Numbered from the stretch's first letter, positions 3,307 through 63,440 are shown. The stretch: DNA of 64,000 nucleotides from Alphaproteobacteria bacterium (GCA_965248915.1 OZ252216.1:153091-217090), one strand, 5' to 3'. Program-made: numbers and translations. Notes: generated from the letters alone by a model not told the origin.

Positions 3307-4983
3307 ATGAAAATCGCACTTTGTTATCCATCACTTTTGCCGGGTGAACGGCCGAGTTACGGTTTGCCGCCAATGGGTATTCTTTATATTGCGGCAGAGC
3401 TGCAATTGGCGGGGCACACAGTAACCGTTGTGGACTCTGATATCGAAGGATTGACTGCGCAAGAAACGGCGGAGTGCATTTTGGCCTCTGACCCGGATCT
3501 TATCGGGTTCAGCATTATGACGCCTCAGGTTCCCTGTTGTTTGCAAGCCTGTCATATTTTGAAGCGTGAACGCCCCGATATTCCCATCGTCATTGGCGGC
3601 GCCCATATCGCATCGACCCTGGATGACATCTTCACTCAAAGTGATGACTTCGATTTCGTGATCAATGGCGAGGGCGAGGTTACGATGCTCGAAGTTTGCG
3701 CCAAGATGCGTGAACAGAAAGTTCCAGAGTGTCTAGTGGGCGTCCCTGGCGTCATGTACCGCAAACCAGATGGTAAGGCCAAGATCAACCAACCACGACC
3801 CTTCTTTAAGGATCTCGATGAGTTGGCACCAATTGATTATTCATTGGTGGATGTTTTCAAATACAAAATCCCGACCCTACCTGGGCCGCCAGTTGTTGGC
3901 TTGATGATCACGCGCGGGTGTCCGTTCAAGTGTACATACTGTGATGCACCGACGACAACCGGTCGCAAAATCAGATATCATTCGCCGAAACGCGCGGTCG
4001 AAGACATTGTGCGGCTTAACAAACAATTCGGCGTGCGAGGATTTTCTTTCCGCGACAGTACCTTTACGGCGTCAAAGAAATGGACCAAGGAATTCTGCGA
4101 ACGTCTTATTGATAGCGGTGTCAAAATCGCTTGGCGTTGCAACACGCGCGTCGACTGTGTCACCGAAGAACTTCTGATGCTCATGAAGAAGTCAGGCTGT
4201 CACACCATCAATTTCGGTGTGGAATCCGGACACCCAGACATTCTGGCGCGCATCAAGAAAGAAGTGAAGATTGACCGGATTTACGACGCTCATAAATGGA
4301 CGCGAAAAGCCGGAATCAGAACTTACACGACATTTTTGGTCGGTTCACCCGGTGAGACCGATGAAACAATACGTGAGACAATAGAGGTAGCAAAGCGAGC
4401 CAGGCCGAGCATGGCCATGTTCTTTGTGACCATTGGATATCCAGGAACCGAAATGTACCGCGAAGCCGTTCAAGAGGGCCTCATCGAACAAGGATGGTGG
4501 AACAAGCAACGCTGGGACAAAGATGTGAACAGCGCATTCGAAAAACGGTGGGGCTGGTCGGCCGATGCAGGGTCGTTACATCTTGAAGGCTTCGATTCAC
4601 AAGGCTGGCAGCGTCGCGCCACACGCGAGTTTTACCTTCGTCCCAGATTTGTACTAGACACATTGATCTTCACTTTGAAGAACCCGTATTTCCTAAGGCA
4701 CGTTATTGTCCTATCGAAAGAAGTCCTGCCTCTGCACAAATTGCGTCTTCCTTGGAAGAAGTCCAAAATCAATGAAGATCATAAAGTCTATTCCCGTTGT
4801 CCGGAAGCTGCGACATGGGATTACAAAGAACGTGATGACCTCCCAGCTCTCACCATTACATCAAGTGGTGCTGTGAAGCGGACCGAAGAGGACATCAAAA
4901 TCCCGAAGGACATTCCTCCCGTCACCTTGGCCGACAGTGGTTTGGTGGAGCTGCGTGCAGGCAAGACGCAAGCAGCGGAATAG
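3307..4983 (+). CDS. B12-binding-domain radical SAM protein (paralog A)
   Basis: N-terminal cobalamin-binding Rossmann segment (KIALCYP…GILYIAAEL…VTVVD). Radical-SAM Cx3Cx2C (GCPFKCTYCDAP). About 120-aa C-terminal extension with WWNKQRWD…RWGW and RCPxxxxWDYKxRD motifs. Confidence 0.85.
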   Translation: MKIALCYPSLLPGERPSYGLPPMGILYIAAELQLAGHTVTVVDSDIEGLTAQETAECILASDPDLIGFSIMTPQVPCCLQACHILKRERPDIPIVIGGAHIASTLDDIFTQSDDFDFVINGEGEVTMLEVCAKMREQKVPECLVGVPGVMYRKPDGKAKINQPRPFFKDLDELAPIDYSLVDVFKYKIPTLPGPPVVGLMITRGCPFKCTYCDAPTTTGRKIRYHSPKRAVEDIVRLNKQFGVRGFSFRDSTFTASKKWTKEFCERLIDSGVKIAWRCNTRVDCVTEELLMLMKKSGCHTINFGVESGHPDILARIKKEVKIDRIYDAHKWTRKAGIRTYTTFLVGSPGETDETIRETIEVAKRARPSMAMFFVTIGYPGTEMYREAVQEGLIEQGWWNKQRWDKDVNSAFEKRWGWSADAGSLHLEGFDSQGWQRRATREFYLRPRFVLDTLIFTLKNPYFLRHVIVLSKEVLPLHKLRLPWKKSKINEDHKVYSRCPEAATWDYKERDDLPALTITSSGAVKRTEEDIKIPKDIPPVTLADSGLVELRAGKTQAAE

Positions 4984-5067: not shown

Positions 5068-6669
5068 TTACTCGCTCACCGTCAGATGTGAATTCGCGTC
5101 ACTGCGCTTCTTATAATCCCAGTTGGGCTGCGACGGACAACGCTCAAGTATTTGCAGGCGTTCATCTTCCTTGATCTTCTTTTGCGGTAAGAGATTGCGC
5201 AATTTGTAGAAGGGAAGAACTTCAAATCCAAGATTCCACAAATGCCTCATGAAATAAGGGTTCTTCAACGTGAAAATTCCCGTGTCCCAAATAAAGCGTG
5301 GACGCATGTACCAGGCTCGGGTTGCCTTGCGTTGCCACAACTCCGCGTCAAATCCGTTCTTGAAGGTAAGGGCGCCTGCATCTGTCCAGCCCCAACGGAC
5401 TTGGAAGGCAGAGTTCTTTGAGGCGTCAAATTCTTGTTTGGCCCACCACCTGGGTTGAACCTCGCCGGCCACGAGTGCCTCATCATACATCGGCGTTCCC
5501 GGATAGGCCGTTGAAACGAAGAACATGCAGAGGCTTGGCCGAACGCGTTTGGAGAAATCGAGTGTATTTTGAGCGCTTTCTTCTGTTTCCCCAGGATTGC
5601 CAATAAGGAATGTCGCGTATGTCCGGATGCCCAATTTGCGGCAGCGCTCAAAGGCATCAACGACCTCTTCGAGATCAACTTCTTTCTTGATGCGCTTCAA
5701 GACTTCCTGGTCACCGGATTCAACGCCAAAGTTGATGACGTAGCAACCGGCCTCGGCCATGAGGTCAAGAAGACCAGGTGGGACGAGATTTGCACGGGTG
5801 TTGCAGCGCCATTTGATATTGAGATTTTCGTCGACCAACCGTTGGCAGAACTCCTGCGCCCACTTCTTCTTTGCGGTGAAAGTTGAGTCCTTAAACACGA
5901 AATTGGTGACACCGTACTTCTCTTTGTAGAACTTGATGTCTTCAATCACTCGGTCAATGGACCAAAATCTGAGCTTGGTTCCCATAGTGATCGGTGCGTC
6001 ACAGAATGTACATTTGAATGGACAACCGCGGGACAACATCATTGAAACCACATAACCACCCGCCATGGTCGGAATGCTGTACTTCTTAATATCGACCATG
6101 TCGTAGTCGACCGACGGAAACTCATCGAGATTGCGGGTAAACGGACGACCGAGGTTGACCTGGACTTTGCCAGTCTCTTTGTCGCGGTAAATTATGTTGG
6201 GCACATCTTCGATGCACTCTTGGAAATTGGTGTAGCCTTCTTCGGTCTTTACGCCCTTGTCGCGCAAGTTTTGGCAGGCCTCAAGCAGCGTGTACTCGCC
6301 TTCACCGTGAACGGCAAAATCGAAACAGTCAGCCATTTCGTATGTGTCACCCTTAGTGGAGTCGACATGAGCGCCTCCAAGTACGACGGGAAGGTCAGGA
6401 CGGGCTTCTTTAATCAGTGTCGAACATGCCAGCGCTGTAATCAGCTGCGGCGTCATCATGCTAAAGCCGATGAGGTCCGGTTCGCTTTCTAAGACGCGCA
6501 CGACCGTTTCTTCCACAGAAAGACCGTCGATGTCCGCGTCGATCACTTCGACGTCGAAACCATTCTCCTTCAACAAGGCCGCAATGTACAAGACGCCCAA
6601 GGGTTGCAGCCCGTACTTTGCTTTGTGTCCCGGTACCAATGCCGGATAACAGAGAGTGATCTTCTTCAT
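5068..6669 (-). CDS. B12-binding-domain radical SAM protein (paralog B)
   Basis: Same architecture as 3307..4983 (KITLCYPALVP…GVLYIAALL…VEVID; GCPFKCTFCDAP; C-terminal RWWAKQEF…RWGW and RCPSQPNWDYKKRSD). Clearly homologous but diverged, roughly 55-60% identity by eye. Confidence 0.85.
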   Translation of the reverse strand: MKKITLCYPALVPGHKAKYGLQPLGVLYIAALLKENGFDVEVIDADIDGLSVEETVVRVLESEPDLIGFSMMTPQLITALACSTLIKEARPDLPVVLGGAHVDSTKGDTYEMADCFDFAVHGEGEYTLLEACQNLRDKGVKTEEGYTNFQECIEDVPNIIYRDKETGKVQVNLGRPFTRNLDEFPSVDYDMVDIKKYSIPTMAGGYVVSMMLSRGCPFKCTFCDAPITMGTKLRFWSIDRVIEDIKFYKEKYGVTNFVFKDSTFTAKKKWAQEFCQRLVDENLNIKWRCNTRANLVPPGLLDLMAEAGCYVINFGVESGDQEVLKRIKKEVDLEEVVDAFERCRKLGIRTYATFLIGNPGETEESAQNTLDFSKRVRPSLCMFFVSTAYPGTPMYDEALVAGEVQPRWWAKQEFDASKNSAFQVRWGWTDAGALTFKNGFDAELWQRKATRAWYMRPRFIWDTGIFTLKNPYFMRHLWNLGFEVLPFYKLRNLLPQKKIKEDERLQILERCPSQPNWDYKKRSDANSHLTVSE

Positions 6670-16878: not shown

Positions 16879-17643
16879 CTACTTGCCTTTCCAGTCAGGT
16901 GCCCGCTTTTCCGCAAAGGCGACGGACCCCTCTATGGCATCCTCGCTGGCAAAGATCGGTCCGGTGATCTTGTTTTGATTTTTGTAGAGATCTTCTGTTG
17001 CCCAGTCTTGGCTTTCCACCATCACCTGTTTGCTGGCTGCGACTGCCATAGGCCCGTTCGCGCAAATCATTTGAGCGAGCTTTTTCGCCTCTTTAAGAGC
17101 CGTACCCTTAGGGACGACTCTGTTGATCAAGCCCATCTCGTAGGCCCGTTGTGAGGTGATGAATTCACCGGTGAGCGCAAGTTCCATAGCAAGACGTGGT
17201 GGGATTTGACGAGGGAGTTTGACAAGACCCCCTGCTGCTGCTGCGAGCCCGCGCTTCACTTCTGGAATACCGAACATGGCATTGTCCGCCGCCACGATGA
17301 GATCGCAGCTGATGGCAAGCTCAAAACCGCCAGCCAATGCGTAACCCTCAACCGCCCCGATCAAAGGCTTTTGGGGCGGCGCTTCTGTGACGCCTGCAAA
17401 TCCACGACCCTCAACCGAAGGGAACTCGCCTTTGACAAAGGCCTTGAGATCCATACCGGAACAAAATGTGCCATCCGCCCCGGTGATAATCGCGACCCGC
17501 AAATCATCATTGCCATCGAGCTCATCCATGGCGGCTGCGATGGCCACAGCCACCGCACGATTGGCAGCATTCTTGGCCTTTGGCCGGTTGATGGTTACGG
17601 TCATGATGCCGCCTTCAGTGCTGACGAGGACTTCTTCGCTCAT
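16879..17643 (-). CDS. enoyl-CoA hydratase/isomerase family protein
   Basis: MTVTINRPKAKNA…FCSGMDLKAF and the AGGFELA crotonase signature. Confidence 0.85.
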   Translation of the reverse strand: MSEEVLVSTEGGIMTVTINRPKAKNAANRAVAVAIAAAMDELDGNDDLRVAIITGADGTFCSGMDLKAFVKGEFPSVEGRGFAGVTEAPPQKPLIGAVEGYALAGGFELAISCDLIVAADNAMFGIPEVKRGLAAAAGGLVKLPRQIPPRLAMELALTGEFITSQRAYEMGLINRVVPKGTALKEAKKLAQMICANGPMAVAASKQVMVESQDWATEDLYKNQNKITGPIFASEDAIEGSVAFAEKRAPDWKGK

Positions 17644-17755
17644 TGGGTTAGCTCCAGGTTATCTGTTATAAGTTCTTGTCTTGACCCCCATGATAGTGCC
17701 AATTTGTCGACCACAACAACAAAACAAAAACACCAGGGACAAGAGGAAACGGAAC

Positions 17756-18988
17756 ATGAGCGAAGCATGGATCATTGATGCCTGCCGGACACCGCGGGGA
17801 ATTGGCAAGATCGGCAAAGGCGCACTCGCCGAAATGCACGCGCAACACTTAGGCGCAACGGTCTTGAAAGCTTTGAAAGAGCGCAACGATCTCAACACCG
17901 CCGAAGTCGACGACATAATATGGGGAACCAGCTCTCAGCGTGGCGACCAAGCCGGTGATCTCGGTCGCATGGCCGCCCTTGATGCAGGTTACGACGTTCA
18001 ATCTTCCGGTGTGACCCTTGATCGCTTTTGTGGATCTGGCATCACAACCGTCAACTTTGCAGCCGCCAGTGTCATGTCGGGATTTGAAGACCTGGTCATT
18101 GCCGGTGGAACGGAAATGATGTCACACTATGGTCAAATGCAAGGCTCATCACCTTTCCTTGACAATGGAAACACCCGTCTTCGTCATGAACATCCGCAAC
18201 CTCACCAAGGCGTCTGCGCTGATGCCATCGCGACCTTGGAAGGAATTTCACGGGACGCCGTTGATGACTTGGCTTTGGTGAGCCAACAGCGCGCTGACAA
18301 TGCCATCAAGAACGGTCACTTCGAAAAATCATTGGTGCCGGTCTACAAGGAAGACGGATCTCTCGCTCTCGACCGCGAAGAATTTCCCCGCCCACAAACC
18401 ACCAAAGAAGGCTTGGCCGGACTAAACGCCTCCTTTGCGGCGATTGCTGATTTCGAACTTGACGAAGACGGCACCACCTTCCGCAAACTGGTGCTGCAGA
18501 AATACCCAGACCTGGAAATCGACCATGTCCACCACGCCGGTAATTCCTCCGGTGTTGTTGATGGCGCTGCAGCTCTTCTTTTGGCCTCGCCAAAATACGC
18601 TGAGAGCCATGGCATGAAGCCGCGCGCCCGCGTTGTCGCGATGGCCAATATGGGCGACAGCCCAACCTTGATGCTCAACGCGCCGGTTCCAGCCGCCAAG
18701 AAAGTCTTGGCGAAAGCGGGCATGAAGGTTGAGGACATCGATCTCTTTGAGATCAACGAAGCCTTCTCGGTGGTGGCCGAAAAGTTCATCCGCGATCTGG
18801 ATCTCGACCGCAGCCGCGTCAACGTGAACGGCGGCGCCATGGCGCTTGGTCACCCGATCGGCGCCACAGGGTCAATCCTCATTGGCACCATGGTCGATGA
18901 GCTCGAACGCCAAGACAAACAGTTTGGTCTTGTGACCATGTGCGCCGCCGGCGGCATGGCCCCGGCTATCATTGTTGAGAGGATGTAA
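17756..18988 (+). CDS. acetyl-CoA C-acyltransferase (thiolase)
   Basis: MSEAWIIDACRTPRG… thiolase N-terminus. Active-site regions …CGSGIT… and C-terminal …GGAMALGHPIGATG…MCAAGGMA. AAGAGGAAA SD before the ATG at 17756; the track ORF is over-extended. Confidence 0.9.
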   Translation: MSEAWIIDACRTPRGIGKIGKGALAEMHAQHLGATVLKALKERNDLNTAEVDDIIWGTSSQRGDQAGDLGRMAALDAGYDVQSSGVTLDRFCGSGITTVNFAAASVMSGFEDLVIAGGTEMMSHYGQMQGSSPFLDNGNTRLRHEHPQPHQGVCADAIATLEGISRDAVDDLALVSQQRADNAIKNGHFEKSLVPVYKEDGSLALDREEFPRPQTTKEGLAGLNASFAAIADFELDEDGTTFRKLVLQKYPDLEIDHVHHAGNSSGVVDGAAALLLASPKYAESHGMKPRARVVAMANMGDSPTLMLNAPVPAAKKVLAKAGMKVEDIDLFEINEAFSVVAEKFIRDLDLDRSRVNVNGGAMALGHPIGATGSILIGTMVDELERQDKQFGLVTMCAAGGMAPAIIVERM

Positions 18989-21576: not shown

Positions 21577-23199
21577 CTAAGCGGTTGGGTGTGACCCATT
21601 GGCGCGAGATGGTGCTTTGCGCGTGCTGCTTGTCTTGCGTTTCGTTTTAGCTTTCGCCTTCGTTTTTGCCTTAGCTTTAGCCTTCGATTTAGCTTTTGGC
21701 TTTGCTTTGGTTTTCGGTCTTGCAGATTTTTTGGCCACAGGTTTCTTCAGCGGTTTTTCCTCTTCGCCCTGGCCCAATCCATGAAGGAAGAGGGTTCTCA
21801 CATCCGCAATGTGTTTCTCGAGATTCTTCACATCCCAATCCTTAGTCGAAATGGGTGGTAGAACTTTGACTTCAATCGTTGTCGGTCGGGCGATGGCCGA
21901 TCCTTTGGGCATGGCATCCGTTGTATTCATCAAAAGGACCGGAACGATGGGCGCGTCTGCCTGCATCGACAAATGAAACCCGCCTTTCTTAAACGGTCCT
22001 AGCTTGTTGGTGACACTCCGGGTTCCTTCCGGCGCCATCATGACCGAAATGCCTGACTTCAACCCATCAATGGCTGGTTTGATAGCCTCGATGGCTTTTT
22101 CTGTATTGGAACGGTCAACAAAGAAAGTTCCAAGGGCGCGCGCCACCTGGCCGATTACAGGTTGTTTGCTGATCTCGATCTTTCCAATAGGGGCAAAGTC
22201 ACGCTTCAAGAGCTTGATCATGACAATCGCGTCAACAGCGCTTTGATGATTGAACATGAAGATTGCGGGTCGATGGGACCACAGGTGTTCTTCACCTTCC
22301 GTATTGATTCTAAGGCCTGTCGAGGCTGCCGACAATTCGCCCCAAACGGAATTGAAGATGTTACGTGCTTGCCAGGGGGAGCGGTTAAGCGCATAGGCCG
22401 ACAACGCTGCCGAGGCCGCAACCATGGAAGAACCATAAGCGAGCCCCGTACGCACGACATCCATTGTTGAAGGTGTGCCGCGGCTATCAAATCTGGTGAT
22501 GGGCCAGTCCCGTTCCTCTGCGATGCGCGTGAGCTTGCGTCCCGGATTAAGAGGGCGGGGATACTTCACCGCGTCTAGGAGTGGCAAATCCTCTGAACCG
22601 TCGGAATAGAAGTAGCTCTTAAGGAGGTCGGCGCCTTTTTCATCGCACAAAGCTTGAGCGGCCACGAGTTTTCCTTCGCCGTAACAGGCAGGTTCGATAA
22701 TGCGGCCAGTACAAACGCCGTTCTCAACTTCTAAATGATTGCAGAGAACGTTGTCGATGCCAAAGTCTTCGGCAACAGGGTCGACCTGATACGACGTCGC
22801 CGAAGAGACGATGGCAACAGTGTGCCCTTTGCGGAAGTGTGCCTCGATCAACCCGCGTGCTTCAGGATAAATCCGTGCGGCGACGCGTTCATCAAAGACT
22901 TTGCGTCCAAATTCGCAATTGGTTTCATCAAGCTGACCGCGCAAGGATGAGATCGTCGCGTTGACCCACTCGGTGAAGTCAATTTTGCCGCGCGCGAACT
23001 CCGTTGAAACGGCGACCCCGTCAATCAGCTCCGGGATCGACATATCACCTTCTTTGAGGCGCTCAACGAACAAGTCTTGAGCTGAAAACCCTGCCAGGAC
23101 GGTCTTGTCCATGTCGAAAAAGGCACCGACGGTCGAGCCTGAGGGGCCATCTTCGATGTCCCGCAACAATGTTTGATAGGTCGCCATAATTCTTCCCAA
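21577..23199 (-). CDS. bifunctional HAD-IB family phosphatase / 1-acyl-sn-glycerol-3-phosphate acyltransferase (PlsC-like) with Lys/Ala-rich basic C-terminal tail
   Basis: N-half has HAD motif I FFDMDKTV and motif IV …YSDGSEDLPLL. C-half has the LPLAT H(x4)D motif (NHQSAVD) and EGTRS motif. The last about 50 aa are KAKxK repeats. The start lies 4 nt after the plsB stop. Confidence 0.75.
   Translation of the reverse strand: MGRIMATYQTLLRDIEDGPSGSTVGAFFDMDKTVLAGFSAQDLFVERLKEGDMSIPELIDGVAVSTEFARGKIDFTEWVNATISSLRGQLDETNCEFGRKVFDERVAARIYPEARGLIEAHFRKGHTVAIVSSATSYQVDPVAEDFGIDNVLCNHLEVENGVCTGRIIEPACYGEGKLVAAQALCDEKGADLLKSYFYSDGSEDLPLLDAVKYPRPLNPGRKLTRIAEERDWPITRFDSRGTPSTMDVVRTGLAYGSSMVAASAALSAYALNRSPWQARNIFNSVWGELSAASTGLRINTEGEEHLWSHRPAIFMFNHQSAVDAIVMIKLLKRDFAPIGKIEISKQPVIGQVARALGTFFVDRSNTEKAIEAIKPAIDGLKSGISVMMAPEGTRSVTNKLGPFKKGGFHLSMQADAPIVPVLLMNTTDAMPKGSAIARPTTIEVKVLPPISTKDWDVKNLEKHIADVRTLFLHGLGQGEEEKPLKKPVAKKSARPKTKAKPKAKSKAKAKAKTKAKAKTKRKTSSTRKAPSRANGSHPTA
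21600..21745 (-). repeat. imperfect short tandem repeats (gcyttrgcyttcg-like) encoding the Lys/Ala/Pro-rich tail
   Basis: Visible on the + strand as repeated gctttagccttcg / gcttttggctttg units. Translation on the minus strand gives KPKAKSKAKAKAKTKAKAKTKRK. Confidence 0.6.
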
Positions 23200-23202
23200 A
23201 CC

Positions 23203-25569
23203 TCAGTCTTCTTGGCGGCTTAGCACCATTGTGACGATAATGTCGAGTCGGCGGGAGATATCTCGCATATCCTGCGCCCATTGAACCCGCCGTTCGGCCA
23301 CTTCCGCGCCGCCCTCGTCAAGCCCGCGATTGGTGGCGAGTTTTAAGCCCGTTTCATAAAGGCTTTTGGAAACTGATTCTTCCGAGAAAATCCGACTTTG
23401 CAAATACATCTGCTTTCCAAGTTTGATGCAGTCAGCCAAAAAGGACTTGGCGTCTTCAACCGGCTCAGATCCGAGGCGACAAAGAGCTTGAGCCACAACC
23501 GAATAGGCATCCGTGAAAGAACGAAGAACTCCCTGGGCCACAAGGGGTCTTGTTTCATCAAGCGCATCGCGCGCTGCATGACCGCCCTCTCTGAGAGCCG
23601 CTTCCCAACTCTTCGTGCGCGCTTTGAGTTCAGAATCAACTTCCGCCCGAAACTCGTCTTTTGGCGGGAAGTAAAACTCAAACTTCAACAAATCTCTCAA
23701 CGCTTCCACTTCACGCCAGAACACCAGCGCGCCGTCTTCACTAGGACGATCCGAGACCTTCATGAGCGCCAGCTCAACAATGGCATCGACAACAAAGAAG
23801 TGAATGATGGTATTTCGGTAATACGCCGCTTTGAGATACTCACCGCGACATATTGCGTAGACCTTCTCAAGTCCCTCTTCGTAACAGGTTACCACCCCAT
23901 TGCGGGTCAACTGTTCAAGCGTTAGCTCAATGGCTTCGAGGGTGTCGAGCTCTAGAGGTCCGGCTGTCGGAAACTGCCGACGATTGACGACTTCCATCCA
24001 GGATTGAATGGTCCGCTGAATACCTTTGAGGGTGCGCGCTCGTGTGCTATTGGCGAGGAGGGACAGTGTTACCAATGAAGTGGCCGTTATGGGAGTGACC
24101 TCATTGATACGAACGGCGACTTGGAAAGCGAGCTTTTGTACGGCTTCGGTTTTTTGGTCTGCATTGAGGCCGTCATTGAGGCGCTCTGGGGGAACAATGT
24201 CAGGAAGACGAAGCGGTTCGCCAAAGCGCAAGAAGATGCGGCCGAGCTTTTGCTTGGAGCGGAGGAACTTTGCGATCCAAGCCATGCCCTCTGGCTTCTT
24301 GTCGAGCCCTCGCTGTTCGCGAATATAGTCATCGACTTCATTGATCTGATCATAGGCAATTGTGACCGGAACAAATGTGACGTCATAGCTCTTGTTTCTC
24401 AGGATCGATTCAACGAAGTAATTGAACATGCCATACCGTGGCGGCAGCAGTTTTCCGGTTCGAGACCGTGTTCCTTCAAATGCCCAAACAAACGAAAAGC
24501 GCTTGTCGACCATATAGTCAATGTAACGCCGGAATGTTGCCTTGTAGGTTTCATTGTCTTGGAAACTGCGCCGAATAAAGATGACACCAGCGTTCTTGCC
24601 AAGGGCGCCAAGGCCAAAGGTATTGAGATTGATGCCGCCGAAAGCCATGGGCGGCGGCAGATTGTTGTCAAACAAAGTGACCGACAAAGCGACCGTATCG
24701 AGCATTGACTTGTGAGTGACCAAAAAGACCACAGGCCTTGAGGTGAGCAAGTCGCGAACTTCTTCCAACTGCCCTTTGTCATAGTCAATTTCAGGATCGT
24801 ACGTACTCACATACATGGCGCGTTGCAGCGCAATGAAGCAATCGAGTGTGAACGGGTTTTGAGCTGCCGCCATTTCTTTGAGATACGCTTCGGCTTTCTC
24901 GCGGACCTGCGGTAAGTCAGCATCGCCCGACTGGGAAATATCAACCAGCTTCTTTTGATAGGTTTGGTCCGAGAAGACGTCACTAGTGAGAAGTTTCGGC
25001 ACCTTGTATCTCGCGCCGCGCAAGACACGTTCGGCTCGTTCCAAGACGACGGCGGCCTGACGCAAGACAAAATCGCTCAGAGTGCTGTCATCAAATTCCG
25101 CTGAACCCCAATCGTCTTCAAATTGGCGTCGCACATCGCTCAAATGGGCGCCGAGACCTGCAGCACATTTTACCCGGTCAGGATGTCTCTTGAGCAGCCA
25201 GCGCCCTCTAAATCTTCCAGGGTGTTGAACGATCCCGGCAAAGAGGTCTTGAACGAGGGGAAATCTTTTCTCCGCGCTGCTTTGCCCAAGCCACACCACG
25301 CGCACCGGTTGGAGCCAGGGGTCATGGCCATATTGCGTGGTACTTTCAATAACCGATGATAGGTCGCTTTGGGCATCCCCACCAATATTGCAAAATGAGT
25401 GATCGACATTTTCGCCGTCGGAATGGTCCGCGATCCATTTCTTGAGGATCTCGTCTTCCAGATCATTCGCCGCATCCAACAGAAAAATAACCTGAGCTTT
25501 GCCTGCCCAAGGGCCAGTGGAAGTTTCTTGATCAACGGCGGTTTCGTGCAAGATGGTCGTTTGACTCAT
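23203..25569 (-). CDS. plsB: glycerol-3-phosphate 1-O-acyltransferase
   Basis: 788 aa, the same size as E. coli PlsB (807 aa). Contains VTHKSMLDTVAL (H(x4)D) and FEGTRSRTGKLL motifs. Confidence 0.85.
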   Translation of the reverse strand: MSQTTILHETAVDQETSTGPWAGKAQVIFLLDAANDLEDEILKKWIADHSDGENVDHSFCNIGGDAQSDLSSVIESTTQYGHDPWLQPVRVVWLGQSSAEKRFPLVQDLFAGIVQHPGRFRGRWLLKRHPDRVKCAAGLGAHLSDVRRQFEDDWGSAEFDDSTLSDFVLRQAAVVLERAERVLRGARYKVPKLLTSDVFSDQTYQKKLVDISQSGDADLPQVREKAEAYLKEMAAAQNPFTLDCFIALQRAMYVSTYDPEIDYDKGQLEEVRDLLTSRPVVFLVTHKSMLDTVALSVTLFDNNLPPPMAFGGINLNTFGLGALGKNAGVIFIRRSFQDNETYKATFRRYIDYMVDKRFSFVWAFEGTRSRTGKLLPPRYGMFNYFVESILRNKSYDVTFVPVTIAYDQINEVDDYIREQRGLDKKPEGMAWIAKFLRSKQKLGRIFLRFGEPLRLPDIVPPERLNDGLNADQKTEAVQKLAFQVAVRINEVTPITATSLVTLSLLANSTRARTLKGIQRTIQSWMEVVNRRQFPTAGPLELDTLEAIELTLEQLTRNGVVTCYEEGLEKVYAICRGEYLKAAYYRNTIIHFFVVDAIVELALMKVSDRPSEDGALVFWREVEALRDLLKFEFYFPPKDEFRAEVDSELKARTKSWEAALREGGHAARDALDETRPLVAQGVLRSFTDAYSVVAQALCRLGSEPVEDAKSFLADCIKLGKQMYLQSRIFSEESVSKSLYETGLKLATNRGLDEGGAEVAERRVQWAQDMRDISRRLDIIVTMVLSRQED

Positions 25570-25626
25570 TGGCTGTTCGTTTCCTCACCGACTTCTCAAA
25601 TATGAAGTGGGATCAATACAGTTGAA

Positions 25627-27063
25627 CTACTTGGCGGTCTTCAATTTTGCGAAAGCCGCTTTTCTCAATTCGTTGTAAGATTGGTCAATGCACTCAGCGT
25701 AAAAATCAGGGTCAGGAAGATGTTCCCGACAAGCTGTTATAGAAATCGTTAGCGTGTTCTTGTGGCTGGTCACCGCGTGGAAAATGCCCATGCCGTCTCC
25801 AAGCGGCGCCATGCCGTACCCGGCGACGAGCTTTGCGCCAGCAAAGAAGATATCCATGGGAAGTCCGGGGACATTCGACACGAATGTATTGCAGATAGGC
25901 CGCATTTTGGAGATCCATTTCATACCTTCAGCACGGCGAAAAGTTGCCGACGCGAGGGCAGGGCTCAAAATGCCGGATATATGGGAGAGAAGATCGGGGC
26001 CGCGAACCGCAGCCATTCGCTTTGCGTCCTGAGTTCGGATGCGAATGGCTTGAAGTCGCGCGATGGGATCTTCTATATCCGTGCCCATGGCAACAGCCAT
26101 ATCTGAAATCTGGTTTCCTCCATCCCCTTCAGCCCCTTCGGTTCTGACCGAGATCGGGCACATCGCCACCAGCGATGTTTTCGGAAGTTCTTCTTTTGCC
26201 AATAGGTAGCGTCGCATCGCGCCGGCGCAAATGGCAATGGCGGCATCATTGATGGTCGCACCATTGATCGCTTTTCTGAATTTTCGAATGTCTTCGAGCA
26301 CATACTCGCGCCCCTCAAAGACGCGGTGCACCGATACCGGTTCGTTAAAGCGCGTGCGTGGGACGGAGGGACTCTTTAGCAGACGTTCCTGCCGTCGCGA
26401 CCGACCGGCTTTGAGTTCTCCGCGAATGAGCGCGGATGTGTGTCCGATCGACGTGAGCGGTTGCTGAACGAGATTTGGCAGAGCGCGCGTAAGCAGAGCG
26501 GCATCCGTGGGCAGGCTTTCATCTGTCCCATCAAATGAATCGGTTCCTTTGTCACGCGAGGCCTCTGGATCAAGTTCGTGTATGGCCTCCATAAGTGCGA
26601 TCGCCGAGACTCCATCTGTGAGGATGTGATGGATCTTGATGAGGACTGCAAAACTACCTTTCGGGATGTTGTCAATATTGTCTAAGCCGCCAATGACATA
26701 CATCTCCCACATCGGACGATTCATATCGAGAGGTCGGGAATAGATGCGGGCCAAGAGAATGCACAGCTGTTTCCAATCGCCTGGCTTTGGCAAGGCGATG
26801 TGGCGAACATGAAATTCAAGGTCAAAATCAGGATCATTGGCGAGATACGGCAGATCCAAGTCCATGGGTACGCGGACCAGTTTCTGCCGAAACGGCTCCC
26901 AGAGGTGCAGGCGCTCCCGCATATACTGCAGGATCTCCATGAACCTTACTTTGCCGCCTGGCGCCGAAGAGGGATCATAGATAGAAACACCACCGACGAC
27001 GCTCGGCGTATGCGGTGTATCCGCATAGAAGAAGACGGCATCTGTGTTGGAGATTTGCTTCAT
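25627..27063 (-). CDS. wax ester synthase / acyl-CoA:diacylglycerol acyltransferase (WS/DGAT) family
   Basis: HHILTDGVS active-site motif (HHxxxDG). 478 aa with a typical WS/DGAT N-terminus MKQISNTDAVFFYADTPHTP. Confidence 0.85.
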   Translation of the reverse strand: MKQISNTDAVFFYADTPHTPSVVGGVSIYDPSSAPGGKVRFMEILQYMRERLHLWEPFRQKLVRVPMDLDLPYLANDPDFDLEFHVRHIALPKPGDWKQLCILLARIYSRPLDMNRPMWEMYVIGGLDNIDNIPKGSFAVLIKIHHILTDGVSAIALMEAIHELDPEASRDKGTDSFDGTDESLPTDAALLTRALPNLVQQPLTSIGHTSALIRGELKAGRSRRQERLLKSPSVPRTRFNEPVSVHRVFEGREYVLEDIRKFRKAINGATINDAAIAICAGAMRRYLLAKEELPKTSLVAMCPISVRTEGAEGDGGNQISDMAVAMGTDIEDPIARLQAIRIRTQDAKRMAAVRGPDLLSHISGILSPALASATFRRAEGMKWISKMRPICNTFVSNVPGLPMDIFFAGAKLVAGYGMAPLGDGMGIFHAVTSHKNTLTISITACREHLPDPDFYAECIDQSYNELRKAAFAKLKTAK

Positions 27064-27227
27064 ACCCGGCCTTCAGATTCGACAACCACACCATGGAACG
27101 CTAGATTCCAAGGACATTGTGCCCAATATGCGGCTGTAAGTGTAGGTTTTTGTTTTTGCAGAGCCACGCCACGATGAAGCGCTGTTCCATGTCGCTGGTT
27201 CGGCTGTGGTTGACGTAAGGGGAAACT

Positions 27228-28235
27228 ATGAGCAATCCGTTGAATGTTGGTATTTTGGGTGCCGGTTCTTGGGGAACTACCGTTGCCTCCCTCGTCGCCC
27301 GAAACGCAAACGCGCTTTTGTGGGCGCGGGACCAGAAGTCGGTTGACGAGATCAACAATAATCACTCCTTGGAAAAATACCTACCGGGCGGATCCCTCAA
27401 CAAATCTCTTCGCGCAACTAATAGCATTGAGGAGGCGGTGCGTGGTGCCGACGTGATCATCATGGGCATTCCGTCGCAAAATTTTCGTTCGGTTCTAAAA
27501 GATGTTTCCAAACACATTCGAGCTTGGGTGCCCATCATCAGTCTCTCCAAGGGTCTTGAGCAGGGGTCCAGGTTGCGAATGACCCAAGTCATTGAACAAG
27601 TATTGCCGGGACATCCGCCCGGCGTCTTGACCGGTCCAAACTTGGCGCGGGAGATCATTTCCGGGGATGCCGCTGCCAGCGTCATTGCCATGGAAGACGA
27701 TGCCATTGTGAAGGCCCTTCAAAGCATTTTTCGCTCAGGGCTCTTTCGCGTTTACACAAACAACGATGTTACCGGGTGTGAGCTTGGTGGGGCGCTGAAA
27801 AATGTCGTCGCAATTGCTGCCGGAATGGGCGATGGCTTAGGCGCCGGCGACAATACCAGATCAGCCGTGATCACACGTGGGCTGGCCGAGCTCACAAGAT
27901 TGGGAACAGCCCTTGGCGGGCGCCCGGAAACCTTCGCAGGATTGGCAGGCATGGGGGATCTAGTGGCGACCTGCACGAGTCAGCAGAGCCGGAACAGATA
28001 TGTAGGCGAACAACTAGGCAAGGGACGATTGCTCGACGACATCATCAACGAGATGCACATGGTCGCCGAAGGCGTCAAGAGTGTTGGCGCCGTCATGGAG
28101 CTTTCCCAAGAGCACAATGTCGAAATGCCCATTGCCCAAGAGGTCTATGACGTCGTGCATCAAGGCGGTGGCCCGCACCGTGCCTTCAGAGGATTGCTCC
28201 GCAGCCAGTCAGGCGCGGAATGGGAGCCGGGCTAG
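27228..28235 (+). CDS. gpsA: NAD(P)H-dependent glycerol-3-phosphate dehydrogenase
   Basis: VGILGAGSWGTTVA Rossmann motif and GpsA-typical regions (…GIPSQ…, …NLAREI…). 335 aa. Confidence 0.9.
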   Translation: MSNPLNVGILGAGSWGTTVASLVARNANALLWARDQKSVDEINNNHSLEKYLPGGSLNKSLRATNSIEEAVRGADVIIMGIPSQNFRSVLKDVSKHIRAWVPIISLSKGLEQGSRLRMTQVIEQVLPGHPPGVLTGPNLAREIISGDAAASVIAMEDDAIVKALQSIFRSGLFRVYTNNDVTGCELGGALKNVVAIAAGMGDGLGAGDNTRSAVITRGLAELTRLGTALGGRPETFAGLAGMGDLVATCTSQQSRNRYVGEQLGKGRLLDDIINEMHMVAEGVKSVGAVMELSQEHNVEMPIAQEVYDVVHQGGGPHRAFRGLLRSQSGAEWEPG

Positions 28236-28269: not shown

Positions 28270-28959
28270 CTATTCGGTTTTGCCGCCCAATAGCCCTGCG
28301 CGAAACAAAAAGCCCGCGACGACCGCTCCGAGGATTGGCGCGACTAAGAACAACCAGAGTTGGCTGATCGCCTCTCCGCCAACAAAAACAGCGGGGCCAA
28401 TGCTGCGGGCTGGGTTGACCGATACGCCGGTGACATTGATGCCGACGATGTGGATGACCACAAGTGCGATCCCGATCGCAAGACCCGCCACGGGCGTTGT
28501 TCCGGCCTCATCGGTTGACCCGAGTATTGTCACAACGAAAAGAAAGGTTGCGACAAACTCAAAAATGAATGCCGCGGTCATGGCATACTCACCCATATAC
28601 CCATCGCCCCAGCCATTTTTCCCGAGACCCGACGCAGCAACGTCATACCCGCCAAGTTGGCCACCAACGATGAGAAGAAGAACGCCTGCACCAAGCACTG
28701 CGCCAACGATCTGCGCGACAATGTACGTGCCCAGTTTAGATGCGGGCATCCGGTTCGCGATGACAGCTGCAATGCTGACCGCAGGATTGATATGGCATCC
28801 CGAAATGGGGCCAATACCGTAAGCCATAGCGATGAGTGCAAAGCCGAATGCGAAGGCGATCCCCAATACACCAATGTCACCACCAGCGATGACAGCCGCG
28901 CCGCAGCCAAAGAGCACAAGCGTGAACGTGCCAATAAGTTCTGCCAAAAAGATTTTCAT
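28270..28959 (-). CDS. aqpZ: aquaporin Z (MIP family water channel)
   Basis: Two NPA boxes (HINPAVS, VNPARS). MKIFLAELIGTFTLVLFGCG N-terminus. The ATG at 28959 is chosen over the extended track start. Confidence 0.9.
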   Translation of the reverse strand: MKIFLAELIGTFTLVLFGCGAAVIAGGDIGVLGIAFAFGFALIAMAYGIGPISGCHINPAVSIAAVIANRMPASKLGTYIVAQIVGAVLGAGVLLLIVGGQLGGYDVAASGLGKNGWGDGYMGEYAMTAAFIFEFVATFLFVVTILGSTDEAGTTPVAGLAIGIALVVIHIVGINVTGVSVNPARSIGPAVFVGGEAISQLWLFLVAPILGAVVAGFLFRAGLLGGKTE

Positions 28960-29186
28960 GTTTTTCCCCTGTCTTTTGAGAGTCAAAAGCAAGACCCGCT
29001 TCTCGCATCTGGGTTAGAAGGTACACAGAATATTTGCCTAAACCCAGTCAGAACTAGGTGGCGTAAGCCGTTTTCGGGTGGAAATATTGCTGCCTTAGAG
29101 TCTTATGGAAATTGATTTTGCATTTCATCTGCACGGTGGTGCCGATATGGTACGGTGACGAATCATCCGCAAACGGAGGCTATGCA

Positions 29187-35480: not shown

Positions 35481-36569
35481 ATGTCTCTATCAAAGTTCCT
35501 GCAGATCTATGTTGTGCCAGGTGCTGTGTTTCAGTCGATCCTCGTTGGTGGTGGCTACGGCACCGGTCGCGAAGTGGTGGAGTATTTCACGCAATATGGC
35601 GCTGTCGGCGGGCTCATGGCCATCGCGGTTGCTTTTTCTCTATTTTTACTTGTCATCGGTTTGACATTTGAAATTGGTCGAAGATTTCAAGCTTATGACT
35701 ACCGCACATTTTTTCAACAGATCCTGGGGCGAGCTTGGCCAGCGTACGAAATTTTCGCGTTCTTTATGTTGATGCTTGTCTTTGCGGTTCTCATTTCAGC
35801 AGCCAGCGAAGTGCTCAATGATCAATTCGGTGTGCCAATACCTGCTGGCATGGCTGTCATGCTTCTGCTGGTTGGGACCTTGGAATATTTTGGCCGCGAG
35901 GTGGTGACCAGGGTGCTAACCTTTTGGTCGCTTTTTCTTTACATCGTCTTCATTGCGTTTCTTGTCGCCGTATTCTCACAGCTTTCTGGTCGAATTGGTG
36001 AGGCATTCGATGCCGGGGCCGTTGAGCCCGGTTGGGCGCTCTCAGGCTTCAAATACGCCATGTACAACATGACAGCGGCACCGATTGTACTCTACGTGGC
36101 GCGCGCGTTTGAGACCCGCTCCCAGGCGCTCACCTCGGCCGGGATTGCCACGGTGATTGCCCTTGCGCCTGCTTTGATTTTTCACGTAGCTTTTCTCGGC
36201 GCCTATCCCGAAATTCGAGCAGTCAACATTCCCGTTTACAGCATGATGGGTGATCTGGGCTTGGGCGTGTTGATGGTCTTCTTCACCATCATGTTGTTCG
36301 GTACGCTGATCGAAACCGGTGCGGGGGTTTTGCAAGGGATCAACGAGCGGATTGATACGCATAGAAGCGAACGTGGTCTGAAGTCCCTTAGCAAAGTCTC
36401 TCATTCTCTGATCGCAGTCGGCTTGATGAGTCTCAGCGCAATTCTGGCGAGTTTCGGCATTGTGGGCTTGATTGCCAAAGGTTACGGCACTCTGTCGTGG
36501 GGCTTCTTCGCGATCTACTTCATTCCGCTTGTGACGGTTGGCGTCTACAGACTCATGAACTCGAAGTAA
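35481..36569 (+). CDS. YkvI-like / APC-superfamily-like polytopic membrane protein
   Basis: About 11 TM segments. N-terminal …FQSILVGGGYGTGREVVEYF… resembles the YkvI-family GAGFASGQE motif. Confidence 0.45.
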   Translation: MSLSKFLQIYVVPGAVFQSILVGGGYGTGREVVEYFTQYGAVGGLMAIAVAFSLFLLVIGLTFEIGRRFQAYDYRTFFQQILGRAWPAYEIFAFFMLMLVFAVLISAASEVLNDQFGVPIPAGMAVMLLLVGTLEYFGREVVTRVLTFWSLFLYIVFIAFLVAVFSQLSGRIGEAFDAGAVEPGWALSGFKYAMYNMTAAPIVLYVARAFETRSQALTSAGIATVIALAPALIFHVAFLGAYPEIRAVNIPVYSMMGDLGLGVLMVFFTIMLFGTLIETGAGVLQGINERIDTHRSERGLKSLSKVSHSLIAVGLMSLSAILASFGIVGLIAKGYGTLSWGFFAIYFIPLVTVGVYRLMNSK

Positions 36570-37839
36570 CATCGTCTGACGACACGTCACTCTTCTTCCG
36601 ATGATTGGCAAGCGCCCATTCGAGAAATGCATGAACCGCATCAACGGTGTGTTCGGTTCGAATGGAATGAACAACCTCATAGGCATGTTGTGCCCAAGGA
36701 AGTTCAGCGTAGGCTGCTGGCGCGTTTGAGGATTGTCTGAGTTCATCAACAAAGTCCTGCGCACCCTCCACTGGAGCGAGGACGTCGTGTGTCCCATGGA
36801 TGACGAAGAACGGCGGCGCGTCTTCAGAGACCTGTGATATCGGTGAGACCAATTCCCAAAGGGCGCGGTCGTCTCCAGGCGAGGAAGGCATAACCGACTG
36901 GGTCAAGAAATCGATCATGCCGGGCCCATAGCGGCCTTCACCGCGATCGAGAAAATCGTAGATGCCATAAAATGGGACCGCGGCAGAAATGGATGTGTCG
37001 GCATTTTCAAATCCCGGCTGCAACACGGCCTTGTTTCCGGTCAGAGCGGTGAGGGACGAAAGATGACCTCCTGCCGAACCACCGGTGATGGCAATGAAGT
37101 CTGTATCCAGCCCATACGTGTTTCCATTCTCGTGCAGCCAAGCGATCGCGCGCTTCACGTCGATCACATGGTCTGGAAAACGAGCGTTGGGGCTCAACCG
37201 GTAATTGATCGCGACGCAGGCCCAACCTCGTTGAGCAAGATGCATCACTAGCGGCATCGCTTGCTGTTGCTTGTGGCCGACAACCCAGGCACCGCCATGA
37301 ACTTGTAGGAGAACAGGGCAAGGCGTATCGGGAGCGGGAGCGGGATCGGGGAGATAGATGTCGAGCGTGTGGCGTTCATGCTCATCCGAATAAGCCAGAT
37401 CTGCAATTCGTTTGACCCCTGGGCGTTTCATGGCGAAAGGCAGCAGCCACTCGCGAGGTGCAATTGAAGGGCGAAAGGTCTCACGGCGATCATCCGGTAT
37501 CTCTAGGCGAAACTCCTCTCCCAAAGCGTCATCAAGAGATTTGATCAGTACCTTCTTGTTCTCGTTGGCCAGAACGAAAACGACGCCAAGGCCAGCCCAA
37601 GACGCAAAAGAAATCGCCAAGCCCCATGATCCCTGCCAAACCTCAAAAACCCCAAAGAGGGCGAAAAAGAGGGTCAAGAGCAGTTGCACCGCGATGAAAT
37701 GCAACGGCATTTCGCTGGCCATCAGACTTAAGAAAAAGTAGGGGATGATCACCGGACCCGCCTTGTTATTGAGGCGAATGAGGGCAGTTGTGGTCCAGGC
37801 GGCGCCAATGAAGCAGCCAATCAAGTAAAGCCAAGCCAT
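36553..37839 (-). CDS. membrane-anchored alpha/beta hydrolase fold-3 esterase/lipase
   Basis: N-terminal about 120 aa with 3-4 TM helices. Then HGGAWVVG (HGGG-box variant) and GGSAGGHL nucleophile motifs. Confidence 0.7.
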   Translation of the reverse strand: MAWLYLIGCFIGAAWTTTALIRLNNKAGPVIIPYFFLSLMASEMPLHFIAVQLLLTLFFALFGVFEVWQGSWGLAISFASWAGLGVVFVLANENKKVLIKSLDDALGEEFRLEIPDDRRETFRPSIAPREWLLPFAMKRPGVKRIADLAYSDEHERHTLDIYLPDPAPAPDTPCPVLLQVHGGAWVVGHKQQQAMPLVMHLAQRGWACVAINYRLSPNARFPDHVIDVKRAIAWLHENGNTYGLDTDFIAITGGSAGGHLSSLTALTGNKAVLQPGFENADTSISAAVPFYGIYDFLDRGEGRYGPGMIDFLTQSVMPSSPGDDRALWELVSPISQVSEDAPPFFVIHGTHDVLAPVEGAQDFVDELRQSSNAPAAYAELPWAQHAYEVVHSIRTEHTVDAVHAFLEWALANHRKKSDVSSDDVTSSS

Positions 37840-49640: not shown

Positions 49641-50831
49641 ATGAGTGATTTGGAGGCATTTCGCCAAGAGACGAGAAATTGGCTCGAGGAAAACTGCCCA
49701 CCATCAATGCGCACGCCTATGACATCCGAAGAGGATGCCGTCTGGGGTGGACGCAAAGAAACCTATGCCAACCCGGAAGCAAAACTCTGGCTGGATCGCA
49801 TGGGTGCCATGGGGTGGACAGCCCCGACCTGGCCAAAGGAGTATGGCGGTGGTGGCTTAACCAGCGAAGAAGCGCGTGTCCTTGGCCAAGAACTGGGGCG
49901 CATCGAAGCGCGTCCTGCTCTTGCAAGTTTTGGCCTTTGGATGTTGGGTCCGGTGCTCATCGAATATGGCACCGAAGAACAAAAGAAAGAGCACCTCCCG
50001 CCGATCGTGCGTGGTGAATTACGCTGGTGCCAGGGATACTCAGAACCTGGTGCTGGATCAGATCTCGCAGGCCTTCAGACAAGGGCTATCCTTGAGGGAG
50101 ACGAGTATGTGGTGAATGGTCAGAAGGTGTGGACTTCCTATGCAGATAAAGCAGACTGCATCTTCTGTTTGGTAAGAACGGATACATCCAAGAAACATGA
50201 AGGTATTTCGTTTTTATTGATTGATATGGATCAACCAGGGATCACAACGAAACCCATCAAACTTATTTCCGGCAATTCGCCATTCTGCGAAACCTTCATC
50301 GACGATGCCCGCGCGCCCCAGCGCAATTTGATCGGCCGTGTAAATGGCGGTTGGGAAATTGCCAAGAAGCTTCTTCAGCACGAGCGCACAAACATCTCAG
50401 CCGGCGGTTTTGGAACCGGCGGTCGGTCGACGCCCATGGAAGAGGTGGCCAAAGAATACCTCGGACAAGAAGGTGGCAAGATCGCTGATACCATTAAGCG
50501 AAGTGATATTGTGAAACAAAAGATGTTGGAACGCGCATTTGGGTTGACCTTGAAACGCATGCAAGATGAATCGAAAGCCGGCGAAGTTTCTGCCGTGTCA
50601 TCGATCATTAAATATGTTGCAGCCGAAATGAACAAAGACCGTCTCGAACTGATGGTCGAAATTATGGGTCTCCAAGCGCTCGGCTGGGAGGGCGACTATT
50701 TCTCAGATGCCGGACTGGCCACGACCCGTGGCATGTTGCGATCAAAAGCAAATTCCATTGAAGGCGGAACGTCTGAAGTTAACCTCAACGTGGTTGCCAA
50801 ACGTGTTTTGGGTCTTCGTGATCATCAGTAA
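49641..50831 (+). CDS. acyl-CoA dehydrogenase
   Basis: ACAD N-, middle- and C-terminal domains. …IEGGTSEV… region near the C-terminus (catalytic Glu position). Confidence 0.9.
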   Translation: MSDLEAFRQETRNWLEENCPPSMRTPMTSEEDAVWGGRKETYANPEAKLWLDRMGAMGWTAPTWPKEYGGGGLTSEEARVLGQELGRIEARPALASFGLWMLGPVLIEYGTEEQKKEHLPPIVRGELRWCQGYSEPGAGSDLAGLQTRAILEGDEYVVNGQKVWTSYADKADCIFCLVRTDTSKKHEGISFLLIDMDQPGITTKPIKLISGNSPFCETFIDDARAPQRNLIGRVNGGWEIAKKLLQHERTNISAGGFGTGGRSTPMEEVAKEYLGQEGGKIADTIKRSDIVKQKMLERAFGLTLKRMQDESKAGEVSAVSSIIKYVAAEMNKDRLELMVEIMGLQALGWEGDYFSDAGLATTRGMLRSKANSIEGGTSEVNLNVVAKRVLGLRDHQ

Positions 50832-50863
50832 AACAACAACAATAGGAAGAATGGAGGAAGCCA

Positions 50864-63432: not shown

Positions 63433-63440
63433 TACTTGGT

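Follow-up and report, generated by a model that had tools for sequence, protein, structure and literature searches.

The closest described counterparts of the locus analyzed here come from actinobacteria. Rhodococcus jostii RHA1 possesses an atf9-plsB-plsC operon whose plsC product is a fusion of a 1-acylglycerol-3-phosphate acyltransferase (AGPAT) with a haloacid dehalogenase (HAD) domain, and this operon was found to be conserved among rhodococci as well as mycobacteria (Rv2483c) (Amara et al. 2016, PMC4850399). The mycobacterial counterpart is composed of Rv2484c (tgs), Rv2483c (plsC, the HAD fusion), and Rv2482c (plsB2), and the Rv2483c and Rv2484c proteins were located on mycobacterial lipid inclusions (PMC10699116). 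The HAD domain of the RHA1 and mycobacterial proteins was proposed to be the missing phosphatidate phosphatase, in which case one operon would encode the whole Kennedy pathway (PMC4850399, PMC10699116). The locus studied here lies at positions 21577-28235 of a 64,000-nucleotide (nt) stretch of DNA from an Alphaproteobacteria bacterium (GCA_965248915.1, OZ252216.1:153091-217090), referred to as the window, and encodes a glycerol-3-phosphate dehydrogenase (GpsA), a wax ester synthase/diacylglycerol acyltransferase (WS/DGAT), a PlsB-like glycerol-3-phosphate acyltransferase (GPAT), and a HAD::PlsC fusion protein. We propose, with a probability of roughly 0.6, that this four-gene module serves the de novo assembly of diacylglycerol (DAG) and triacylglycerol (TAG) from dihydroxyacetone phosphate (DHAP) and represents the alphaproteobacterial equivalent of the actinobacterial atf9-plsB-plsC operon.

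In such a module, GpsA would reduce DHAP to glycerol-3-phosphate, which the PlsB2-type enzyme (at sn-1) and the PlsC domain (at sn-2) would acylate to phosphatidate, the order of the two acylations not being fixed. The HAD-IB domain, held at the membrane surface via the two-helix anchor of PlsC, would dephosphorylate phosphatidate to DAG, onto which WS/DGAT would transfer a third acyl chain to give TAG. In this scheme we infer the substrate of the phosphatase, the end product, and the timing of module use. The first-pass annotation of this DNA had argued that the path from DHAP to TAG is complete if the HAD domain is a phosphatidate phosphatase; that logic holds, and it is strengthened by the conserved neighborhood and by natural gene fusions.

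A second group of related loci was reported by Galvan et al. 2023 (PMC10351704), who described a "complete putative Kennedy pathway" adjoining ws/dgat genes in Alpha- and Gammaproteobacteria, with Parasphingorhabdus halotolerans JK6 (alpha) and Arenicella xantha and Woeseiaceae (gamma) as examples. In one gammaproteobacterial scaffold gpsA adjoins the GPAT gene, and the fusion was labelled "PAP/AGPAT" (PAP, phosphatidate phosphatase) (PMC10351704). Since such cassettes have been published for Rhodococcus and Mycobacterium (PMC4850399, PMC10699116) and for both Alpha- and Gammaproteobacteria (PMC10351704), the present one is of a known kind and leaves the basic picture in the literature unchanged.

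The window shares with the Rhodococcus/Mycobacterium operon three gene families, including the HAD::AGPAT fusion, and the order WS/DGAT-plsB-fusion is that in which the RHA1 operon is written. However, its proteins are only 33-35% identical to the actinobacterial proteins compared, and it differs by its alphaproteobacterial host, the presence of gpsA in the block, and a long basic tail on the fusion protein. With the clusters of Galvan et al. it has the set of WS/DGAT, GPAT, and AGPAT-HAD in common, and their arrangements were matched in the Parasphingorhabdus, Woeseiaceae, and Halieaceae loci collected in this work. The order in those lineages is fusion-plsB-wsdgat(-gpsA), whereas the window and Parvibaculaceae have gpsA <-> wsdgat-plsB-fusion, an order unmentioned in PMC10351704, where "Parvibaculum" has 0 occurrences. 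The locus is of interest because the enzyme that supplies DAG for bacterial TAG synthesis is uncertain: the PAP2 genes of Rhodococcus are barely expressed, and the HAD alternative was proposed in 2016. Here the catalytic residues of the HAD domain are intact, in a compact cassette from a proteobacterium.

Four linked genes of glycerolipid synthesis

Family assignments were made by comparing Pfam and NCBIfam profile scores with the curated cut-offs, and motifs were read from the translations. The four open reading frames (ORFs) were found where the first-pass annotation had placed them, with gpsA on the plus strand diverging from WS/DGAT, plsB, and HAD::PlsC on the minus strand, and the gene identities it had given were borne out: all four proteins score above curated family cut-offs and have intact catalytic motifs. 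WS/DGAT, the PlsB2-type gene, and the fusion gene are adjacent and co-directional. The stop codon of WS/DGAT and the start of plsB are 57 nt apart, as had been annotated; between the plsB stop codon and the TTG start of the fusion ORF as listed there are 3 nt rather than the 4 given before, and 15 nt if the fusion begins at its likelier ATG. No convincing terminator was found between the cassette genes, the terminator-like matches being situated within coding regions. WS/DGAT, plsB, and the fusion gene are probably co-transcribed as a single message, with gpsA transcribed divergently. The GC content of the cassette (0.52-0.54) is the same as that of the rest of the window, and this comparison gave no compositional sign of recent transfer.

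The gpsA gene (27228-28235, plus strand) encodes a protein of 335 amino acids that matches NF009098 with 504.9 bits (cut-off 436) and NF000942 with 410.1 bits (257), together with the N- and C-terminal glycerol-3-phosphate dehydrogenase domains PF01210 and PF07479 and with PF20618. It is 66-70% identical to the gpsA products that adjoin the cassette in Parvibaculaceae, and an index of public assemblies contained no exact copy of its sequence, so that close relatives of the source organism are not represented there. The region between WS/DGAT and gpsA measures 164 nt (27064-27227), as previously annotated, and presumably contains the promoters of both transcripts. A single weak sigma-70-like match is present at 27079-27107 on the plus strand, and the number of promoter-like matches in the region equals the shuffled expectation. 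Two nested inverted repeats were identified; the predicted RNA fold is no better than that of shuffled sequences (z-score 0.19), Rfam returned no match for the region, and the alignment with the Parvibaculaceae intergenic regions contained no convincing shared operator or other conserved element. A regulatory RNA or operator in these 164 nt was rejected on these grounds. On the other side of gpsA, and convergent with it, lies a gene for a major intrinsic protein (MIP) channel (28270-28992, minus strand). It was considered as a glycerol facilitator and rejected, as it is aquaporin-Z-like (241.5 bits, cut-off 256) and not GlpF. MIP homologs that are 53-54% identical are located directly upstream of fusion-gpsA pairs in one metagenome-assembled genome each of Spirochaetales and Deltaproteobacteria (L043, 2263-2763; L063, 7183-7674).

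The WS/DGAT gene (25627-27063, minus strand; 478 amino acids) is the first of the co-directional trio. Its product matches PF03007 with 196.7 bits (cut-off 23.6), PF06974 with 93.1 bits (20.7), and TIGR02946 with 393.2 bits (309.95), and its HHxxxDG catalytic motif (HHILTDG) aligns with that of the Marinobacter WS/DGAT structure 6chj, the closest solved structure, with which it aligns end to end (E 3.5e-47). Since all three models are matched above their cut-offs, a PapA5-type acyltransferase of phthiocerol dimycocerosate (PDIM) synthesis, the scenario under which the annotation was said to fail, is excluded. By its sequence the protein is a putative acyl-CoA:DAG or acyl-CoA:fatty alcohol acyltransferase, and the second of these activities leads to an alternative in which the enzyme mainly esterifies fatty alcohols and adjoins glycerolipid genes for co-regulation only. 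WS/DGAT enzymes are often bifunctional, Marinobacter is among the marine proteobacteria that store wax esters, and the closest structure is a Marinobacter enzyme. However, a fatty acyl-CoA reductase domain was not detected in the window ORFs scanned, which leaves the wax-ester product named by the first-pass annotation unsupported in the window, and the linked genes and fused partners all encode enzymes of the glycerol backbone. A module for wax esters is therefore considered highly improbable.

The plsB gene (23203-25569, minus strand; 788 amino acids) is preceded by a GAGGAA ribosome-binding site. Its product contains Acyltransferase and GPAT_C domains (GPAT_C, 249 bits) with the motifs THKSMLD and FEGTRS, and it reaches 745.5 bits against NF002886 (cut-off 721). 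In contrast, the models of the E. coli-type enzyme gave scores far below their cut-offs (TIGR03703, 246.6 versus 618.5; NF003441, 249.4 versus 610), by which an E. coli-type identity is ruled out, and the match to the solved GPAT 9vuq amounts to only 131 bits. The plsB product that adjoins the fusion in Nocardia farcinica has 1091.7 bits against NF002886, and the plsB copies of Parvibaculaceae and Parasphingorhabdus likewise pass this model. As judged from these profiles, the window protein is of the actinobacterial PlsB2 type, that is, a glycerol-3-phosphate/lysophosphatidate sn-1 acyltransferase; the earlier assignment stands insofar as the protein is a PlsB-like acyltransferase and falls insofar as the enzyme of E. 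coli was meant. Mycobacterial PlsB2 was shown to transfer acyl groups to the sn-1 position of both glycerol-3-phosphate and 2-acyl-lysophosphatidate (Angala et al. 2023, PMC10593935), so that the order of the two acylations in the cassette cannot be assumed.

The HAD::PlsC fusion protein and longer natural fusions

The fusion gene was listed as an ORF of 540 amino acids with a TTG start (21577-23199, minus strand). The ATG at 23187 is the likelier start, because it is preceded by a GGGAAG ribosome-binding site and agrees with the alignment of homolog N termini, and residue numbers below are counted from it. Residues 1-236 (22480-23187) form the HAD domain, which matches PF12710 with 110.5 bits and the HAD-IB model TIGR01490 with 150.5 bits (cut-off 98.3) and has motifs I-IV intact (DMDKT, Lys, DGSED). 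Residues 291-475 (21763-22317) form the PlsC (AGPAT) domain, with 99.4 bits against PF01553, 104.9 bits against TIGR00530 (cut-off 102.95), the motifs NHQSAVD (HX4D) and PEGTRS (EGTR), and a phmmer match to the Thermotoga maritima PlsC structure 5kym (E 3e-21). Across 54 homologs, residues D25, D27, T29, T131, K173, D196, and D200 do not vary. For a wider alignment of the HAD domain, 1.84 billion cluster representatives were searched exhaustively and 100 diverse ones were aligned; in this alignment the nucleophile DxD is kept in about 99 of the 100, the position of the motif-IV residue D200 is Asp in all but about 4, which have Glu, and that of D196 is Asp or Asn. This conservation of catalytic residues across homologs indicates that the HAD domain is under selection as an enzyme.

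An AlphaFold model of the fusion protein, generated with the 54 homologs, was confident, with a predicted local distance difference test score (pLDDT) of 85.2 and a predicted template modeling score (pTM) of 0.79. The predicted HAD fold is closest to the uncharacterized Bordetella protein 3fvv (TM-score 0.85-0.89), followed by SerB-type phosphatases. The linker between the two domains (residues 241-290, 22318-22467) is modeled as two long helices, 241-268 and 271-290, with pLDDT values above 88, after which the acyltransferase core begins. When helices and core together were compared with 5kym using Foldseek, the model gave a TM-score of 0.78 over 239-243 alignment columns, for chains of 232-241 residues. 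By this comparison the segment is predicted to correspond to the two-helix motif of T. maritima PlsC, both helices of which embed in the membrane. As the HAD domain directly precedes this motif, the phosphatase would be placed beside a membrane-interacting element.

Evidence on the step catalyzed by the HAD domain comes from genes in which it is fused further. WS/DGAT::HAD::PlsC polypeptides were found twice among the cluster representatives (P0136, 975 amino acids; P0276, 967 amino acids). The gene for P0276 was found in two assemblies (L084/L085, 8001-10904), where it diverges from a plsB-type gene of 811 amino acids, so that two genes suffice for all four activities in this organism. The reverse arrangement, HAD::PlsC::WS/DGAT, is a single observation from NCBI (P0141, 969 amino acids), and PlsB::HAD::PlsC proteins were found five times (P0123, 1092 amino acids; P0131; P0145; P0154; P0156). 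P0123 is encoded on five or more contigs of several different metagenomes (L086-L088, 8001-11279), with a WS/DGAT::SCP2 gene 1.6 kb away; by the description in PMC10351704, this latter architecture is indicative of Bacteroidota. The HAD, PlsC, PlsB, and WS/DGAT motifs are retained in every fusion that contains the respective domain, and as far as our literature search showed the single-polypeptide fusions are new. The presence of a conserved phosphatase between the enzymes of step 2 (AGPAT) and step 4 (DGAT) is the strongest in silico argument that the HAD domain acts at step 3, and the triple-domain fusions are the most direct genomic argument for this so far.

Lipin/Pah1 and the PAP2 enzymes (PgpB/Lpp type) resemble it in the proposed reaction; they differ in that the cassette has no lipin or PAP2 Pfam domain, and neither PAP2 (PF01569) nor the lipin LNS2 domain was present in the cassette proteins or in the other window ORFs scanned. 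Lipins are DxDxT HAD enzymes; the HAD-IB cap type of the window domain is that of SerB-like enzymes, unlike lipins and PAP2. Histidinol-phosphatase and phosphoserine phosphatase identities were rejected, since all scores were below the cut-offs (NF052360, 118.9 versus 280; NF052359, 92 versus 400; TIGR00338, 40.9 versus 144). E. coli PgpC, according to its annotation, dephosphorylates a membrane lipid phosphomonoester and, like the window domain, belongs to PF12710, which shows that membrane lipid phosphates are within reach of this fold. However, PgpC is a stand-alone protein of 211 amino acids with a different substrate, and its similarity to the window domain is marginal (24% over 78 residues, E 0.008). 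The PgpC-specific NCBIfam model was not among the matches. Given the marginal similarity, a PgpC-like identity was rejected and PgpC kept only as a plausibility argument.

Plant GPAT4 and GPAT6, which have an N-terminal HAD-like and a C-terminal PlsC-type domain, offer another precedent for an acyltransferase and a phosphatase in one protein; the comparison was made by description only. GPAT4/6 are reported to be sn-2 GPATs with phosphatase activity and 2-monoacylglycerol as product (Yang et al. 2010, as cited in PMC10593935). The plant product is for cutin, not DAG for TAG. A fusion of the same habit would lead from glycerol-3-phosphate via lysophosphatidate to monoacylglycerol, and WS/DGAT would then acylate monoacylglycerol and DAG to TAG. 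In favor of this route, PlsM, a bacterial member of the PlsC family, can acylate glycerol-3-phosphate at sn-2, and the Acinetobacter WS/DGAT has monoacylglycerol acyltransferase activity. However, the PlsB2-type gene, which is unnecessary for a monoacylglycerol product, is the most frequent partner of the fusion and is even joined to HAD::PlsC in one polypeptide, and the PlsC domain scores above the cut-off of the AGPAT subfamily model. The route is consequently regarded as improbable.

The C-terminal tail of the fusion protein (residues 476-536 plus the stop codon, 21577-21762) is rich in Lys, Ala, and Pro, and its pLDDT values below 50 point to disorder. Similar tails of 50-130 amino acids with a net charge of +18 to +40 were found in alpha- and gammaproteobacterial homologs adjoining plsB (L011, L012, L024, L029, L031-L033, L038, L041, L047, L048, L067, L071, L073, L074, L076), and that of one homolog matches the histone H1-like Pfam family HC2. 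The tail is short in Parvibaculaceae and absent from the Myxococcota-type proteins of about 474 amino acids. A wider proposal, which taken as a whole is tentative and in our estimate has slightly less than an even chance, combines these features. HAD-IB domains fused to PlsC would form a widespread class of Mg2+-dependent phosphatidate phosphatases, distinct from PAP2 and the lipins, by which the product of PlsC would pass straight to DAG at the membrane surface; WS/DGAT::HAD::PlsC proteins would catalyze the three consecutive steps from lysophosphatidate to TAG; and in alpha- and gammaproteobacteria the histone H1-like tail would serve as a tether to an anionic surface (the nucleoid or the monolayer of a lipid droplet), in the manner of PhaF, a polyhydroxyalkanoate granule protein with a histone-like tail.

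Conserved linkage and the role of the cassette

To survey relatives of the fusion, one genome per species was scanned and the best 80 of 584 matches were kept, a sample skewed to closer relatives. The other cassette proteins were mapped onto these loci; the counts refer to the 47 loci in which the fusion gene is flanked by 5 kb or more on either side, and to partners within 6 kb of it. A PlsB2-type gene was found in 30 of the 47, gpsA in 19, WS/DGAT in 16, and no partner in 15. The closest cassette relatives are those of Parvibaculaceae, with fusion proteins 57-60% identical, and five Parvibaculaceae genomes have the identical arrangement gpsA <-> wsdgat-plsB-fusion. The order is fusion-plsB-(wsdgat)-gpsA in Halieaceae and other gammaproteobacteria, fusion-plsB-wsdgat in Sphingomonadaceae and Kordiimonadaceae, and fusion-gpsA-plsB-wsdgat in Parvularculaceae, and many Myxococcota have fusion-gpsA or a lone fusion gene. 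At least five gene orders are spread over Parvibaculaceae, Sphingomonadaceae, Kordiimonadaceae, Parvularculaceae, Halieaceae, Woeseiaceae, and Myxococcota. Linkage that is kept through repeated reshuffling of gene order is a classic signature of functional coupling rather than chance.

All ORFs of the related loci were clustered to find recurrent neighbors. A PF12146 alpha/beta hydrolase recurs in 20 loci and a DUF3336+patatin protein in 12, and both genes stand beside gpsA in all five Parvibaculaceae loci that have the order of the window. Lipase-type neighbors are situated at about 70-2750 in L001-L005 and at about 13.7-16.1 kb in L024, L028, L049, L051, L053, L062, and L075. Tgl3-5 and SDP1, which are eukaryotic TAG lipases, have the DUF3336+patatin architecture as well. 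Among the recurrent neighbors of the related loci there was no cdsA, pgsA, or pssA. A WS/DGAT gene was not found upstream of the Nocardia plsB-fusion pair. In Mycobacterium paragordonae, a 306-kb plasmid (NZ_CP025547.1, 121916-129233; L081) carries a set of WS/DGAT, alpha/beta hydrolase, and alcohol dehydrogenase genes, with a HAD::PlsC fusion and a PlsB1-like acyltransferase encoded divergently from it, which indicates that versions of the module can be plasmid-borne.

Several observations weigh against the proposed assembly of TAG from DHAP. The 15 loci in which the fusion gene has no partner nearby are mostly from Myxococcota, and many loci link the fusion to gpsA and/or plsB without WS/DGAT (gpsA plus plsB in 9 of 47, plsB alone in 6 of 47); the conserved core may consequently be the path from DHAP to phosphatidate or DAG, with WS/DGAT as a frequent add-on, and may have a general function in glycerolipid synthesis. 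The window has neither the patatin nor the Hydrolase_4 partner seen in relatives. Small soluble phosphoesters are the substrates of the nearest relatives of the HAD domain (SerB; histidinol-phosphatase models, 92-119 bits). In the Nocardia farcinica ortholog adjoining a PlsB2-type gene (L082, 8001-9380), HAD motif I, which is intact in the window, is degenerate: this single sequence has "FDLS" and a deletion of about 10 residues at motif I and lacks the first motif-IV Asp, so that the phosphatase may be inactive in some actinobacteria. The literature search yielded no biochemical assay of any HAD::PlsC fusion, and Galvan et al. state that the function of AGPAT-HAD "remains to be elucidated" (PMC10351704). 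Furthermore, the RHA1 operon was described as "house-keeping" and vegetative, with expression that was highest under nitrogen excess and 35-50-fold lower under nitrogen limitation, and it holds the only plsB homolog of that strain (PMC4850399). These data, the only ones on expression of a homologous operon, point away from a storage pathway separate from housekeeping synthesis, and the dedication to storage suggested by the first-pass annotation was over-stated.

The same RHA1 data, together with the frequency of plsB and gpsA as partners without WS/DGAT and the membership of PgpC in PF12710, can be read in favor of a housekeeping glycerolipid module. It would mainly deliver phosphatidate for membrane phospholipids during growth and would possibly be the main route of glycerol-3-phosphate acylation; WS/DGAT would draw on a side stream, and the HAD domain would be a phosphatidylglycerophosphate phosphatase like PgpC, a regulator, or another phosphoesterase, and not a phosphatidate phosphatase. 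However, the WS/DGAT::HAD::PlsC and HAD::PlsC::WS/DGAT polypeptides tie the HAD::PlsC pair to a neutral-lipid enzyme, TAG-lipase-type patatin genes are co-located in relatives while genes of phospholipid synthesis (cdsA, pgsA, pssA) are not among the recurrent neighbors, and the resemblance to PgpC is marginal, as set out above. Moreover, Alphaproteobacteria normally use PlsX/PlsY. Among the ORFs scanned in the 64-kb window, which is a part of the genome, no plsX, plsY, or second plsC turned up. We consider a mainly housekeeping role of this type rather unlikely. If the preferred reading of TAG assembly is correct, this marine-type alphaproteobacterial lineage, which has hardly been examined in this respect, is predicted to be capable of storing neutral lipids, and an operon of three genes (four with gpsA) that possibly converts central metabolites to TAG would be a convenient part for the engineering of oil production.

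Other genes of the window

The neighborhood of the cassette is rich in genes of lipid metabolism. An esterase of 428 amino acids with Abhydrolase_3/BD-FAE domains is encoded at 36553-37839 (minus strand), and its best NCBIfam match is mycobacterial LipQ (306 bits, cut-off 700). In M. tuberculosis, lipQ (Rv2485c) adjoins Rv2484c-Rv2482c; the window esterase is located 8 kb from gpsA. Genes of beta-oxidation are scattered over the window (16879-18988, 41-850, 49641-52003) and encode enoyl-CoA hydratases, a thiolase, and two acyl-CoA dehydrogenases. Two B12-binding radical S-adenosylmethionine (SAM) enzymes are encoded beside a gene with a lysyl-phosphatidylglycerol synthase transmembrane (TM) region (1926-2960 and 3307-4983, plus strand; 5068-6669, minus strand), and this set may be a lipid-modification cluster unrelated to the cassette. 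Two further features mark the host as an alphaproteobacterium. GcrA is encoded at 53040-53621, and an alpha-proteobacterial SAM-II riboswitch (RF00521, 46.7 bits, E 2.3e-7) was detected at 63361-63442 on the minus strand, upstream of a gene for a pyridoxal phosphate (PLP) enzyme of Cys/Met metabolism (62112-63320).

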